This document shows positions 56,083 through 61,229 of a stretch of DNA of 64,000 nt, piece by piece (positions within the stretch are counted from its first letter, which is position 1; every line of letters starts with the position of its first letter). The translations under genes were made by a program, and so were the position numbers. Source of the stretch: a virus (lineage: Duplodnaviria; Caudoviricetes); IMG/VR virus record IMGVR_UViG_3300028833_000057, positions 192,001 through 256,000 of that record. One strand, 5' to 3'. The notes below the pieces were generated by a model that saw only the letters and a list, made by a program, of their open reading frames with translations, made no database searches and was not told where the DNA came from.

Positions 56083-57174
56083 CTACTCAATATAAGAGAA
56101 TGCCTGTCCTTCACCGAAGTATTTTTCGATGATAGAAACGACATTTTCCTTATTGATGATTTCAAAGTTCTTGCTGGGCACAGTATACCCAGCATGTTCA
56201 TTGAAAATCCTGCGTGCAGTCTCATGCTTAAAGAGTTCTTTATACTCTTCTTGAGCAGCAAACTGCTTACGGATGATATCAATTCGTTCATCCGTAACAT
56301 GTTGTCTGACATTTGCCAAGAGATCCTGCATGAGTGGAAGCACCTCTTTGGGCTTATCACTCATAGACAAGAATGTTGGCAATCTTCCACCCATTTCAAG
56401 CAGGATACCACCAGTCATGTATACAAGACCGCGTTTCTCACGCAGTTCCTGCATAAAGGGCGACTGAAGACCTTCCGAAAGTGCATTGATAGCACTAGCC
56501 AGAAGAAGTGATTCATCTGGATTGCGACACGGTTTGTTTGCAGTAATCCAGATGGTCTTCTGCGGATTTCCGGTTTCCTTCTCAAAGGAAGGTTCACCAG
56601 AAATCCTCTCGATCTGAGGGAAGATATGCGGGTACAGCTCTTCATGGCTTTCACCTTCAAGCATCGAATTCGGTCCAATAGACAAAATCCAAGGCCTGGT
56701 AAAGATCTCCTTACAGTTGTAAAGATAATCTTCGTATTTAAATGCATTCACACCAGACTCAATGCCAGTGCTGCCATAAAAGTCAAAATTATCCCACAAC
56801 ATGTGGTGCAATGCCGCACGGATGGGTTGAGAGAATACCATACCAATTTCTTGGCAAACCGTATTTTTTTCGTTCTCAAAAGTAGCCTTATCCACAGGCT
56901 TTCCATGGATAATAGCCTTCGAGAGTTCCTCAGCCAGCGGCTCAATGTTCTTAGTGAGTCCTGAGAACTGGATCACCATGTTCTCATTGGAGGTATGCGC
57001 CTCCTCACTAATATCACCGGCCTGGAGAGCATCCCTCAAGTGCTTATAATGGTGGCACAAGAGATGTTCCAAGAGATGAGATGTACCCCTGATGCTCTTA
57101 CGCTCACTAAGCGGAGAGCAATTATCGTAGACAAAACAAAGTTTCGAATACGGTAAAGAGTTCTGAATATGCAT
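56083..57174 (-). CDS. M16 family (insulinase-like) zinc peptidase
   Basis: GTSHLLEH, ENEKNTVCQE, S..MQELREKRGLVY. Confidence 0.9.
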   Translation of the reverse strand: MHIQNSLPYSKLCFVYDNCSPLSERKSIRGTSHLLEHLLCHHYKHLRDALQAGDISEEAHTSNENMVIQFSGLTKNIEPLAEELSKAIIHGKPVDKATFENEKNTVCQEIGMVFSQPIRAALHHMLWDNFDFYGSTGIESGVNAFKYEDYLYNCKEIFTRPWILSIGPNSMLEGESHEELYPHIFPQIERISGEPSFEKETGNPQKTIWITANKPCRNPDESLLLASAINALSEGLQSPFMQELREKRGLVYMTGGILLEMGGRLPTFLSMSDKPKEVLPLMQDLLANVRQHVTDERIDIIRKQFAAQEEYKELFKHETARRIFNEHAGYTVPSKNFEIINKENVVSIIEKYFGEGQAFSYIE

Positions 57175-57284
57175 TGATGACTCCTTGTTAAGTTAAACTT
57201 ACATATTCTATTTTATAATATAAAGAATCATCAAAAAAATTAACGGAAGAAAAAATATAAGGCTTTATAGCCTTATATTTCTCT

Positions 57285-57599
57285 TTATATCTCTATTTGT
57301 GAGCCATATAACCAATGAGATTTAAGAATTATTTTTATAAAATTCCATTTCGCAATAGATATGATATCTTTTCCGGTAATATTTTTACGTGACAATAGAT
57401 TATTCTTGGCAAGTTCTAAATTTTTATAAGCATAATTATCTGGATTTTTAGGTTTTTTATTGTTTATTTCATTTTCTAAATTATTCATAAAACGTTCAGC
57501 AAAAATAAAACATTCGAAGCATGCACCTCCAATGATCTTATCTTTGATATATGACTCTTTAAAGTGATCATAAGATTTTTTATCTTTTAGCAGTAGCAT
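57285..57599 (-). CDS. hypothetical protein
   Basis: 104-aa ORF with GAGGA RBS. Confidence 0.65.
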   Translation of the reverse strand: MLLLKDKKSYDHFKESYIKDKIIGGACFECFIFAERFMNNLENEINNKKPKNPDNYAYKNLELAKNNLLSRKNITGKDIISIAKWNFIKIILKSHWLYGSQIEI

Positions 57600-57830
57600 A
57601 ATATCCTCTTATTTAATTATTATTCTATAATTTAATATAATATGCAGGATAAAAATTTTACAAAAAAAAAAAATCTCTATAGCCTTATATGGACTATAGA
57701 GATATTTTTCAGTGTTATGCTACTTTGCACCATTAGTTTAACAGATTATGACACTTGTATGTTTAGGGAATAATTTTGTGTGATAAGGTCTTATTAAACT
57801 AACTAGTTCGTTAAGCTAGATCTACACTAG

Positions 57831-57902
57831 AGCCTAATGAATGATTCGAACACTCGACATATACATTACAAATGTATCGTTCTACCACTGAACTAATTAG
57901 GC
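57831..57902 (-). tRNA. tRNA-Thr(TGT)
   Basis: GCCTAAT/ATTAGGC acceptor, ATACA-TT-TGT-AA-TGTAT anticodon arm. Confidence 0.88.
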
Positions 57903-58101
57903 GGAACCTTAACATAAGTACTGACTAAATCCACCCCTCGGTGCGATAGAGCCATCGTCATCACTGACTACTTCAAGGCCATTCAACTAATCTATATGAA
58001 ATACAAATTAGTCTGACCACTTATGTTAAGGCATTTAAAAGTTATTGGAGATATATCGGTGTGTGTGGGATTGGATCCTTTTTGAAGATATATCCCCAAT
58101 A

Positions 58102-58174
58102 TTGGAATGGTGGGGTTCGAACCCGCGACCCACGCCTTAAAAGGGCGTTGCTCTACCAACTGAGCTACATTCCA
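58102..58174 (-). tRNA. tRNA-Lys(TTT)
   Basis: TGGAATG/CATTCCA acceptor, ACGCC-CT-TTT-AA-GGCGT anticodon arm. Confidence 0.9.
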
Positions 58175-58181
58175 TAGCATA

Positions 58182-58255
58182 TCGGAATAGCCGGATTCGA
58201 ACCGACGACATCTTGCTCCCAAAGCAAGCGCTCTACCAGACTGAGCTACATTCCG
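58182..58255 (-). tRNA. tRNA-Pro(TGG)
   Basis: CGGAATG/TATTCCG acceptor, CTTGC-TT-TGG-GA-GCAAG anticodon arm. Confidence 0.93.
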
Positions 58256-58350
58256 TAAAGAGCTTAGGGATGGAGGAAACAAACCACCCCTAAGCCTTTT
58301 CACCTTTCAAAAGGATACCCTTTCGGATACCAGAATTTAATATAATGATA

Positions 58351-58608
58351 TTAATTATTCATCAACGCATTCTGAAGAACGTAACCTTCAAGTTCCCAGA
58401 CCTTATTTTCAATGCGTTCTCTACAAATCTGCTCACCAAGATTCTGATCATAATTTGCCGGGTCTACACATGAGCTAGACTCACAGATCACAAATCCATT
58501 CGGAAGAGTACAGCAAACAACTGTAGTCTTTTCACCCATCTTAATGCTTTCAAACTTTGAAGCATCCAAGATCGCCTTAATATCTTCTGGCGTAATTCTA
58601 TTCTTCAT
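58351..58608 (-). CDS. Gp49/Gp66-family phage protein
   Basis: TTVVCCTLPNGF...SSCVDPANYD..LG..IC...VWELEGY; AAGGA RBS before ATG 58608. Confidence 0.85.
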   Translation of the reverse strand: MKNRITPEDIKAILDASKFESIKMGEKTTVVCCTLPNGFVICESSSCVDPANYDQNLGEQICRERIENKVWELEGYVLQNALMNN

Positions 58609-58636
58609 ATAGCATCCTTTGTTGAATGAAAAAAAA

Positions 58637-58842
58637 ATATACCCGTATACGGTGGGAATCGAACCCACATTTCCCATCTATAAGGTGAGATTCGAACTCA
58701 CGTGGCGTTGTTAACGTCTTCACGGTTTCCCCCAAGTCAACAGTTTGCTCAAGTCAACTCTGTGTAAGCATAGTATCAGAACTTACAGGGTAATAGGTTT
58801 GCTTGTATCCGGCCTTGCATACTTTACAGTATAGAGGTATAT
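58637..58842 (-). ncRNA. tRNA-like element with two tandem T-arms
   Basis: GTGAG-TTCGAAT-CTCAC and GTGGG-TTCGATT-CCCAC; ends pair (ATATACC/GGTATAT). Confidence 0.55.
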
Positions 58843-58860
58843 TGTAGAATCTAAAAATAA

Positions 58861-58944
58861 TAGCTAAGGTGAGACTTGAACTCACACGATGTTGCCATCA
58901 AGGGATTTTAAGTCCCCAGTGTCTACCACTTCCACCACTCAGCC
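58861..58944 (-). tRNA. tRNA-Leu(TAA)
   Basis: GGGGA-CT-TAA-AA-TCCCT anticodon arm, long variable arm. Confidence 0.92.
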
Positions 58945-58954
58945 ATGTAAGATA

Positions 58955-59191
58955 TTACTTCTTACCTTTCAATTTTAAATTTGCTTTCTGCCAATCTGAA
59001 ACTGTTTTATATTTCTTTTCTTCACTAGACCAATCAGTGCAAGTAAACTGCCAACCTGGATCTCTATCAATTCTTTCTACACATGCATCACAAAATTTAG
59101 TTGTAAATAATGAACCATCTTTTAAAGATTCAGTTTGTACCCTTTTAGGTTCCTTATCAAAGGGACGACAGCATTTACTGCATATGAACAT
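58955..59191 (-). CDS. small Zn-finger-like protein
   Basis: CSKC...CDAC, located between two tRNAs. Confidence 0.6.
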   Translation of the reverse strand: MFICSKCCRPFDKEPKRVQTESLKDGSLFTTKFCDACVERIDRDPGWQFTCTDWSSEEKKYKTVSDWQKANLKLKGKK

Positions 59192-59195
59192 ATAG

Positions 59196-59277
59196 TACCT
59201 AATGTAAGACTCGAACTTACACTTCTTGCGAAACTTGCTCCTAAGGCAAGCGTGTCTACCAATTCCACCAATTAGGC
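59196..59277 (-). tRNA. tRNA-Leu(TAG)
   Basis: CTTGC-CT-TAG-GA-GCAAG anticodon arm, variable arm. Confidence 0.92.
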
Positions 59278-59286
59278 GGGAAATTA

Positions 59287-59493
59287 TTAAACTCTTACAC
59301 CATGCAATGTATTCATACTACACCCTCAAAAGGGTTCTCTTCAAGCATTAGCAACAGTCTTAAGGGAATTCATAAGGGAAGTTGCATTGATTTCCGATTA
59401 GCATCCTACATGAGATCCTTGCAAGGCATTACGGAATTTTATAGTCCGTCCTGTAGTTTCCTTATGTAATCAGTTCGTAGTATTAGAGTTTAA
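59287..59493 (-). ncRNA. putative ~207-nt multi-stem ncRNA
   Basis: Nested inverted repeats (see findings). Confidence 0.6.
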
Positions 59494-59654
59494 ACACTTC
59501 ACAATCGTACCTAACCTATAATCAAAAGGTTTCATCTGTTTAGAAGTTGCGCTAACTTTATGAGGTAAAAGTATATCCATGTACGGGAACATAGATAAAG
59601 ATGGAGTCAAACCATCTAGCGGATACCATTGTGTAAAACTTATTAAAATCTTAG

Positions 59655-59727
59655 CTGCTTCACATGGACTCGAACCATGGACAAGCGGATTAACAGTCCG
59701 CTGCTCTACCAACTGAGCTATGAAGCA
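59655..59727 (-). tRNA. tRNA-Asn(GTT)
   Basis: TGCTTCA/TGAAGCA acceptor, GCGGA-CT-GTT-AA-TCCGC anticodon arm, G73. Confidence 0.94.
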
Positions 59728-59748
59728 ATTTATAATTTGTTATAAAAA

Positions 59749-59822
59749 TGGACAGACTCGGACTTGAACCGAGAACCCGCAGGTTATGAGTCTGCTGCGC
59801 TAACCAATTGTGCCATCTGTCC
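59749..59822 (-). tRNA. tRNA with CAT anticodon (elongator Met or Ile2)
   Basis: GGACAGA/TCTGTCC acceptor, CT-CAT-AA loop; lacks initiator features. Confidence 0.88.
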
Positions 59823-60172
59823 ATTGTGATTCTCTAGAACGTGGATTTCAGGAAAATCTATGACAAATTTTATCTAGAGAATCACTTTATAAAAATTAGT
59901 GGCTAATTGCTGGAGACACAACCTAGGAAGACTTGCAGAATAACTAGGTCACAACAATTAGCCAGAAATGAAAACTGAGTAGAGTAAAACGCAGGATGTA
60001 AGGGATTACTTTCTTAGTTGAATTCTACTCAGTCCTCTTCACACAACTCTAACGAGCAACATATTTGCAACGTCAAAGGAGGTTCATGGAAAATATTTGA
60101 CGATCTTTCTTCGTCAATACTAAATTATAATCGTTCAGCACATTTTGATTACTACCAGGGCCGTACCAGCTG

Positions 60173-60251
60173 TGGATCAACGGAGATTCGAACTCCGAAC
60201 TTTCTCATGCTTTGCAACTTGAGAGTGCTTTACCAATTAAGCTAAAGACCC
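60173..60251 (-). tRNA. non-canonical tRNA-Ala-like (G3:U70, expanded anticodon loop)
   Basis: GGGTC/GATCC-A acceptor, normal D and T arms, 12-nt loop AGTTGCAAAGCA. Confidence 0.6.
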
Positions 60252-60446
60252 ATGACTTTCTAATCTAGCATATTATAAGAGATGATTAAAGGTACCTACA
60301 TCTCTTATAAAACTTCTAGTAATGCTATAGGGATGCACAGTCTGGCTAAAGGCTATGCATCCCATAGCACCCCTTCTCAACTATGTGAGCGACATATTCG
60401 CAACACAACGGAGTTCTTCAAAATTTAATATATCAATGAAACTATA

Positions 60447-61229
60447 TTAGAATGGAAGATCATCAGCTTCTTCTTCGCTATACTGAGGAGCTGCTGCTTG
60501 CTGCTGAGGAGCAGCATTACCAGAATTAGCCCAAGACTGTGCAGTAGACGCACCTCTACGAGAAGGCGCTCTAGGAGCAGATGTACCACTGGTATTCTGA
60601 CCACCATTATAATTATCGCCACGGTTCGGCTTGTGATCCATAGGAGATACAAGCACACGACACATTTCATTTACAAATTCACAGAATGTGTCAAAAGACG
60701 GATTTTCTACAAAGATAGTTGCTTCTGCATTTGCATCTGTAGAATTGAAACCTTGGAGATTAATATTTTCAAAATAGAAGGAATGTGTATAAGAAATTTC
60801 CTTGCTGTTATTATCTGCCTTACCAACATAGATAATAACACCATCCTTCATATCTTCTTCTTCAGTAGCAGATCCGTCAATCAAACGGAAATGACTACCA
60901 TGGAAAGAGATTTCCATGTCAAGGATTTCTTTAGCCTTATAATGCATAAGAACCTTGCGAAGAACCTGACAATCTTCTGCAGACAATGACATATAGATAG
61001 CATTGTCGTAATCGTATGTTTGTTCACCCTTCTTAGGAGTTCTGCCACGCATGTCATTGAAAACTGCTGCAATAGAGAGGGTAGCATAAGCACGACCGAA
61101 GCCAGCAGTGGCATAGCCAAGCTGCATAGCACCAGTCTTATTATTGAACAAAGTCGTACACTTGGTACGAACATAGTTCGGTTTATCTTGTGTATTGTTA
61201 TTCGAATTCTGCTGATACGAATTAGCCAT
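60447..61229 (-). CDS. putative single-stranded DNA-binding protein
   Basis: Disordered tail ending EEEADDLPF; directly downstream of the DNA polymerase gene. Confidence 0.65.
   Translation of the reverse strand: MANSYQQNSNNNTQDKPNYVRTKCTTLFNNKTGAMQLGYATAGFGRAYATLSIAAVFNDMRGRTPKKGEQTYDYDNAIYMSLSAEDCQVLRKVLMHYKAKEILDMEISFHGSHFRLIDGSATEEEDMKDGVIIYVGKADNNSKEISYTHSFYFENINLQGFNSTDANAEATIFVENPSFDTFCEFVNEMCRVLVSPMDHKPNRGDNYNGGQNTSGTSAPRAPSRRGASTAQSWANSGNAAPQQQAAAPQYSEEEADDLPF

Follow-up and report, generated by a model that had tools for sequence, protein, structure and literature searches.

In this study, we identified a new family of structured non-coding RNA, here called module C, which is encoded within the tRNA operon of a rumen jumbo phage that has a genome of 268 kb and is of the PBS1/AR9/phiR1-37 type. 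Module C is a multibranched RNA of about 207 nt, located at positions 59287–59493 of the window (the 64,000-nt stretch of DNA analysed here, corresponding to positions 192001–256000 of the 267,826-bp virus record). We hold with high confidence that its fold is a real conserved RNA structure. An earlier sequence-only reading of the same DNA had proposed a novel compact multibranched RNA, and this proposal was supported: compensatory and wobble changes preserve the structure among homologues, and Rfam contains no matching family. The strand, the tRNA-operon setting, an adjoining conserved RNA of about 150 nt and the cassette behaviour had escaped that reading. In broad terms, the family belongs to a kind already known, and its three-state cassette is unusual.

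For decades, no function has been found for the structured RNAs of phage tRNA arrays, such as T4 RNAC/RNAD, GOLLD and ROOL. In the present case, a single site occurs in three natural states in close relatives, beside several other undescribed RNAs, and offers a built-in comparison for the role of such RNAs and for the host factor that selects them. At 207 nt, module C is of a convenient size for probing and cryo-EM; its known range is narrow and comprises four sequences.

Genomic setting and transcribed strand

The family B polymerase of the phage is divergent, with its nearest counterparts in the Bacillus phages AR9/PBS1 and the Yersinia phage phiR1-37 (approximately 32% identity), and the public runs that best match the phage are sheep-gut metagenomes. 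Module C is present in a single copy within the phage genome, in a minus-strand tRNA cluster between tRNA-Asn (59654–59727) and tRNA-Leu(UAG) (59195–59277). Its 5′ end is near 59493, and tRNA-Leu(UAG) begins 9 nt beyond the 3′ end of its closing stem, P1. The tRNA-Met(CAU) and tRNA-Asn(GUU) genes (59654–59823, minus strand) belong to the same operon upstream of module C, and a polynucleotide kinase gene lies in the neighbourhood.

At the head of this tRNA/ncRNA operon, we detected the motif TATATTA-N6-G (60419–60432, minus strand), which is present at the equivalent place in seven relatives. Over the whole genome, a G at that offset followed 72 of the 94 non-coding copies of TATATTA vs 16 of the 76 coding copies. 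The AR9 early promoter, which is read by the virion RNA polymerase, has a consensus resembling TATATTA-N6-G (PMC5312081), and the intergenic form of the motif is likely the virion-RNA-polymerase early promoter of this phage. Approximately 70 intergenic sites of this type were found genome-wide, the majority of them on the minus strand. Where the tRNA cluster ends, a hairpin followed by a T run (57673–57703, minus strand) resembles an intrinsic terminator, by pattern match only.

Module C is encoded on the minus strand. This assignment was based on the co-directional tRNAs, the promoter motif, the consensus energy of the four-sequence alignment (−44.4 kcal/mol for the minus strand vs −38.2 kcal/mol for the plus strand) and the one-sided pair changes, which pass through G–U on the minus strand. 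Comparison with shuffled controls gave a divided answer: the module C region folds better than its own shuffles (z of −3.6 for the plus strand and −2.9 for the minus strand), but this is ordinary, as 10 of 60 random 207-nt windows of the phage genome reached z ≤ −2.9 (20 shuffles each). Since such z-scores are commonplace in the phage genome, folding energy alone constitutes no evidence. In the phage copy, the conserved fold described below is approximately 18 kcal/mol less stable than the predicted minimum-energy structure, and in the other copies it is 7–11 kcal/mol less stable.

Homologues and conservation of module C

BLASTN searches of annotated phages and plasmids with module C, or with module C joined to the adjacent block B, yielded chance fragments only, and the matches from DNA-pattern scans of IMG/VR and GTDB were ruled out as chance by nhmmer and covariance models. 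Because the DNA searches of public collections were empty, contigs of relatives were gathered using the 260-aa protein encoded upstream as an anchor; protein-anchored scans of IMG/VR and GTDB gave no relatives, an absence of little weight. The gene for the anchor protein (60447–61229, minus strand) follows the DNA polymerase gene, upstream of the tRNA operon. The protein had no match in Pfam or PHROG, and its predicted structure showed a weak likeness to the DUF3276/PurA/Whirly single-strand binders (TM 0.42–0.46), suggesting that it is possibly the phage SSB.

Three distinct homologues of module C were found, all at the equivalent site: one in L020, one in L022 (shared with L023, L024 and L038) and one in L071. 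These are 81–83% identical to the phage copy, exceeding the 63–67% identity that the neighbouring genes show at their four-fold degenerate sites (for L071, 74.5%). The four copies score 217–273 bits with the model. The alignment comprises these four sequences, with only two deep lineages (the phage vs L020/L022/L071), so that the covariation rests on few events. In the 3′ part of the module, 37 of 39 columns are invariant, with long unpaired stretches. In agreement with the sequence-only reading, there is no credible open reading frame: a 55-aa plus-strand frame (59302–59469) is interrupted by stop codons in all three homologues. Two RNA libraries from a single sheep-gut sample yielded contigs that span module C; because such contigs cannot give the strand, ends or level of a transcript, and DNA is possibly present, the expression of module C is not claimed.

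Comparative fold of module C

The three homologues support a revised fold, in which 99.6% of alignment cells are paired and five pairs show two-sided changes (three in P1 and two in P3). Among the variable pairs, 11 were kept paired and one was broken, and the compensatory and wobble changes fall in P1, P2, P3, P4 and P10. Slid controls of the same model were 33–42% paired. None of 500 shuffles matched its pairing and covariation score, a count that is not a probability; the model was fitted to the same four sequences on which it was scored.

The closing stem P1 (5′ strand 59485–59493, paired with 59287–59295) carries compensatory changes in three of its nine pairs and closes a three-way junction with P2 and the hairpin P10. 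P2 (59476–59483/59315–59322; 8 bp, with one A–U/G–U change) leads into a central junction bearing P3, the tentative helices P7 and P8, and the hairpin P9. P3 (59464–59473/59394–59404) has 10 bp, of which two changed in a compensatory manner, two on one side and none with loss of pairing. A low-depth DNA contig with a U–G to C–G change in P3 (at 59472) fits the revised model; it is possibly an error and was left uncounted. Between P3 and P4 lies a purine-rich bulge of 7 nt, A(A/U)GGAAA (59457–59463), in which GGAAA is invariant in the four copies and which is a possible hinge. A T-box reading of this bulge, with UGGA pairing to the tRNA CCA end, was rejected, since the phage has AGGA and there is no UGGNACC.

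P4 (59449–59456/59406–59415) closes a further three-way junction (59406–59456) with P5 (59445–59448/59432–59435), which has a variable loop, and P6 (59417–59426), an invariant palindrome of 10 nt forming a 3-bp stem with a UGCA loop. On the 3′ side of the central junction (59335–59393), P7 (59385–59390/59370–59374) and P8 (59359–59368/59335–59345) show one wobble each, and the pairings given by RNAalifold in this half differ between the three-sequence and four-sequence runs. The hairpin P9 (59323–59334) has 4 bp, one of which is broken in L071, and a UUUG loop. P10 (59296–59311) has a U–G/U–A change in its stem and an invariant loop containing UGCA (59303–59306). RNAalifold also proposed a helix GGAA-UCA/UGA-UUCC, which is weakened by L071, and a GGAA/UUCC pseudoknot is a candidate.

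The sequence-only reading had listed six complementarities, namely five nested helices and a crossing ATGCAA/TTGCAT pair, and two hairpins; all are present in the phage sequence and entirely Watson–Crick. Its helices 59287–95/59485–93, 59315–21/59477–83 and 59406–10/59452–56 and its hairpins 59322–35 and 59417–26 hold across the homologues, as does the 4-bp core of 59431–35/59445–49, which is found in every copy; the low score of this last helix reflects an alignment shift. The helix 59371–77/59460–66, by comparison, loses two of its seven pairs in three of the four copies, and its place is taken by P3. In these same three copies, the proposed pseudoknot has two mismatches and one gap among six pairs. 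Both are features of the phage sequence only, and 86.5% of cells are paired in the earlier model as a whole over the four-sequence alignment. The 3′ half of this pseudoknot is the P10 loop, which is invariant.

The UGCA of this P10 loop is complementary to the UGCA of the P6 loop (59420–59423). The duplex between the two loops was computed at −4.3 kcal/mol, and the self-duplex of the P6 palindrome at −16.1 kcal/mol. The columns around the palindrome are all invariant (16 of 16) and show no covariation. P6 is a candidate kissing or dimerization loop, and the P6–P10 pair, either intra- or intermolecular, appears a better candidate contact than the pseudoknot proposed before.

Block B and the three alleles of the cassette site

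Directly upstream of module C lies block B (59494–59638, minus strand), a separate conserved RNA of approximately 150 nt, and module C begins immediately past it in all four copies. Block B is 80–88% identical in all close relatives, with five compensatory pairs, and had no Rfam match. It consists, in order, of a tRNA-type T-arm hairpin, a closed acceptor-like stem and a D-like arm, giving it the look of a permuted tRNA with a YrlA-like arrangement. No pairing between block B and module C was predicted, and the two fold independently. Block B is more widely conserved than module C, may contain further pseudoknots and merits separate study. A weak match of the block B model elsewhere in the phage genome (G000:134691–134840) falls within coding sequence and was discarded.

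The spacing from block B to tRNA-Leu falls into three alleles, of 214–215, 106 and 28–29 nt. The longest is module C, the 106-nt allele holds an unrelated cloverleaf of about 95 nt (L018/L030 group) and the shortest is a bare hairpin (L026/L034 group), the 29-nt hairpin being found in ten loci. Each of the three has a similar closing stem, the counterpart of P1, followed by a U-rich spacer. Relatives thus fill one stem either with the 207-nt RNA or with the cloverleaf, or leave it as a bare hairpin, which makes module C an optional, exchangeable cassette; the bare hairpin looks like P1 without its interior. A stem and a U-rich run precede tRNA-Leu in almost all relatives, including L045 and L048, which lack block B. 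The distant relatives L047 and L048 have neither block B nor module C, and L047 has no stem at all ahead of tRNA-Leu.

Block B and the cloverleaf together are 96% identical between L018 and L030, although the upstream gene is 70% identical. In the tree of the upstream protein, L018 groups with L020 and L022 at a fork of weak support, distant from L030, and the alleles at the module C site do not follow this tree, several forks of which are weak. The near-identity of the block despite the diverged gene, together with the discordant tree, indicates that the block moves laterally. The cloverleaf allele itself (L018:11901–12005 and L030:7543–7647) is 98% identical between the two contigs; its first arm is T-loop-like, and it contains a AGCGAAAG stretch one base from the YrlA motif.

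Comparison with known RNA families

In Rfam 15, module C had no match at the gathering threshold, the best score inside it being 12.8 bits (E of 5), and the L020 copy had none at E ≤ 1; relaxing the cut-off to E ≤ 10 brought up tRNAs and chance matches alone, and no known family removes its novelty. Module C is not a member of GOLLD, ROOL, T4 RNAC/RNAD, YrlA, RNase P, tmRNA or the ribozyme classes tested. Its mode of action is probably similar to that of the structured RNAs found in phage tRNA arrays (GOLLD, ROOL and T4 RNAC/RNAD).

GOLLD and ROOL occur near phage tRNA islands and assemble via kissing loops, some of them palindromic (10.1101/2024.12.08.627333). Like these RNAs, module C lies beside phage tRNAs and has a multibranched, protein-free-looking fold, variable modules and palindromic loops able to kiss between chains, and it shares the rumen habitat with ROOL. 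Unlike them, it is far simpler, at about 207 nt vs several hundred (often over 800 for GOLLD), and is optional and exchangeable inside one phage clade. The GOLLD and ROOL models gave no match over 57100–60500 at E ≤ 10. T4 RNAC and RNAD derive from the tRNA region of T4, are processed along with the tRNAs and are late RNAs, whereas module C stands behind an early-promoter motif. Both are small expressed phage RNAs of unknown function (PMC9697503); module C has no DNA similarity to annotated phage records. The candidates of Fremin et al. 2023, compared here by size only, measure 30–151 nt vs about 207 nt.

The theta ribozymes of gut phages are minimal nested double pseudoknots whose cleavage site is no more than 5 nt from the 3′ end of a tRNA (PMC10879173). 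Module C resembles them as a structured RNA next to a gut-phage tRNA, but is much larger and abuts the tRNA 5′ end; on its other side, tRNA-Asn ends at 59654, 161 nt from the start of module C at 59493. No HDV-like Rfam match was obtained, and the comparative fold is of another topology. YrlA RNAs combine a T arm with a closed stem and a D-like arm (PMC4201824), as do block B and the L018/L030 cloverleaf, while module C differs from YrlA in having neither a T-loop nor a sense-strand GNCGAANG motif. The YrlA model matched none of the three modules, and the phage genome contains no Ro60 gene or TROVE domain.

As noted in the sequence-only reading, RNase P and tmRNA signatures are absent. The RNase P elements CR-I GGAAAGUC and CR-V (P4 with a bulged U) are missing from all four copies, without an Rfam match, and ARAGORN found no tmRNA. 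The P3–P7 core of group I introns (GACUA/AUAGUC in order on one strand) is not conserved in module C and no gene is interrupted; the true intron of L048, by comparison, has both elements and scores 60.6 bits. In simple motif scans of the four copies, hammerhead, hairpin, twister and pistol cores were not conserved and had no Rfam match, a CUGAUUA look-alike being confined to the phage copy, and no conserved group II intron motif was found.

Proposed mode of action and alternatives

We propose that module C is released from the early tRNA precursor as a free stable RNA that acts in trans as a protein decoy or scaffold; taken as a whole, we give this mechanism an even chance of being right. It builds on the strand, the operon position behind the early-promoter motif, the selected fold and the optional, exchangeable presence of module C, all of which were observed. 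The virion RNA polymerase would make one early polycistronic minus-strand transcript, from which cleavage by host RNase P at the 5′ end of tRNA-Leu and trimming of the A/U-rich spacers would free module C, with P1 protecting the ends. The long arm P2–P3–P4 may bend at the GGAAA bulge, and the UGCA loops of P6 and P10, which are invariant, may pair within or between molecules to give a compact or dimeric particle. In the weakest step, the particle would act by its shape, binding a host protein as a decoy or scaffold in host takeover or counter-defence without catalysis. Optional, exchanged alleles have the distribution expected of accessory host-specific genes, and this swappable distribution, the polynucleotide kinase and the Tad4-family gene of relatives point, by association only, to a role in host conflict. 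No protein partner is evident, with neither Ro60 nor a reverse transcriptase in the genome.

An unlikely alternative to such a trans-acting RNA is that module C acts in cis, either as a variable domain at the 3′ end of the block B RNA (approximately 360 nt jointly) or as a leader for the processing or stability of tRNA-Leu, in which case only P1 and the U-rich spacer would matter and the interior would tune their effect. The position of module C directly after block B and the stem and U-rich run found ahead of tRNA-Leu even where block B is missing are in favour of this reading; yet block B closes on itself with no predicted pairs to module C, L047 manages without any stem, and the 29-nt hairpin is enough in ten loci while the 190-nt interior is under selection. 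We regard as less probable still that module C represents a new ribozyme class and might, for instance, cut the polycistronic precursor close to tRNA-Leu, in the way that theta ribozymes cleave at the 3′ ends of tRNAs. The size, the multiple junctions and the long invariant unpaired stretches are compatible with a catalytic core, and group I introns occur in tRNA-Met of this clade. However, module C lies 5′ of the tRNA, so that the usual self-cleavage would leave a 5′-OH on the tRNA side, the usual 2′-OH chemistry yielding a 5′-OH on the downstream product. Tests for known ribozyme motifs, from hammerhead to RNase P, and for Rfam matches were negative, and most relatives make the same tRNA without module C. 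Although tRNA-linked ribozymes are known in gut phages (PMC10879173), we obtained no positive support for the earlier suggestion of possible catalysis: no tested ribozyme core is conserved, and module C is absent or replaced in many relatives that keep the tRNA.

A similarly low probability is given to a selfish or hitch-hiking mobile RNA, MITE-like or intron-derived, for which the tRNA operon would be a safe harbour and P1 the terminal inverted repeat. Such an element would account for the patchy presence, the 9-bp inverted ends and the lateral exchange, in a region that is also home to group I introns and PD-(D/E)XK nuclease genes. Against it, there is a single genomic copy at a site that never varies, and the ‘empty’ allele retains the P1 stem and looks like an internal loss rather than an empty target; no target duplication, reverse transcriptase or intron core was seen. 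Least probable of all is that module C has no function of its own, being a spacer that is decaying or folds by chance, or a cluster of hairpins at the DNA level: its z-score is common in the genome, it is lost in many relatives and P9 is broken in L071, but compensatory and wobble changes are spread over five helices, the wobbles are G–U on the transcribed strand and the identity exceeds that at silent sites. The trans-acting particle may also be placed in a wider and rather speculative scheme, which we consider doubtful, where the tRNA operon would be an array of exchangeable stem-closed RNA ‘accessory genes’ freed by host tRNA processing, and module C an RNA-only effector of counter-defence or host takeover whose palindromic UGCA loops would drive its self-assembly; a new class of ribozyme is the less likely variant of this scheme.

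Other RNA modules in the tRNA cluster

The tRNA cluster is a mosaic of RNA modules. An optional structured-looking module of approximately 170 nt lies upstream of block B in L022 (7506–7672), L020 (4098–4263), L030 (7217–7400) and L071 (about 2760–2925) and is absent from the window; its L022 and L030 versions differ by apparent compensatory changes. A group I intron occupies the anticodon loop of tRNA-Met(CAU) in L048 (1967–2242; 60.6 bits) and L071 (about 1805–2070), and probably also in L018 (11389–11707) and L027 (about 7441), while the tRNA-Met of the phage itself is intron-free. Free-standing PD-(D/E)XK_5 nuclease genes lie beside the tRNA-Met intron in L020, L027 and L071, an arrangement reminiscent of the tRNA-fMet intron of cyanobacteria with its homing endonuclease.

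The first module of the operon (60255–60440, minus strand) contains conserved long hairpins, one with a TTAGCCA loop, a motif that recurs in unrelated hairpins of L047 and L048. Next to it is an atypical tRNA-like gene (60173–60251, minus strand), which scores 40.9 bits with the Rfam tRNA model, requires a 5-nt ‘intron’ in the ARAGORN call, has an enlarged anticodon loop and is conserved in both L020 and L071. Between the tRNAs, further long non-coding hairpins at 59826–60170 and 57903–58100 (minus strand) are partly conserved and partly replaced in relatives. The spacer at 58680–58858 (minus strand) ends with a T-arm-like hairpin, is approximately 68% identical in relatives and is possibly a degenerate tRNA or another tRNA mimic.

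After the tRNA cluster, one slot is filled by an unassigned 104-aa frame in the phage (57285–57599, minus strand) vs a Tad4-family gene in relatives (L018:14312–14599 and L022:10121–10408), and is followed by M16 peptidase and polynucleotide kinase genes. Another conserved non-coding block, absent from the window, was found in the two most distant relatives (L047, about 50–260, and L048, about 1400–1560).
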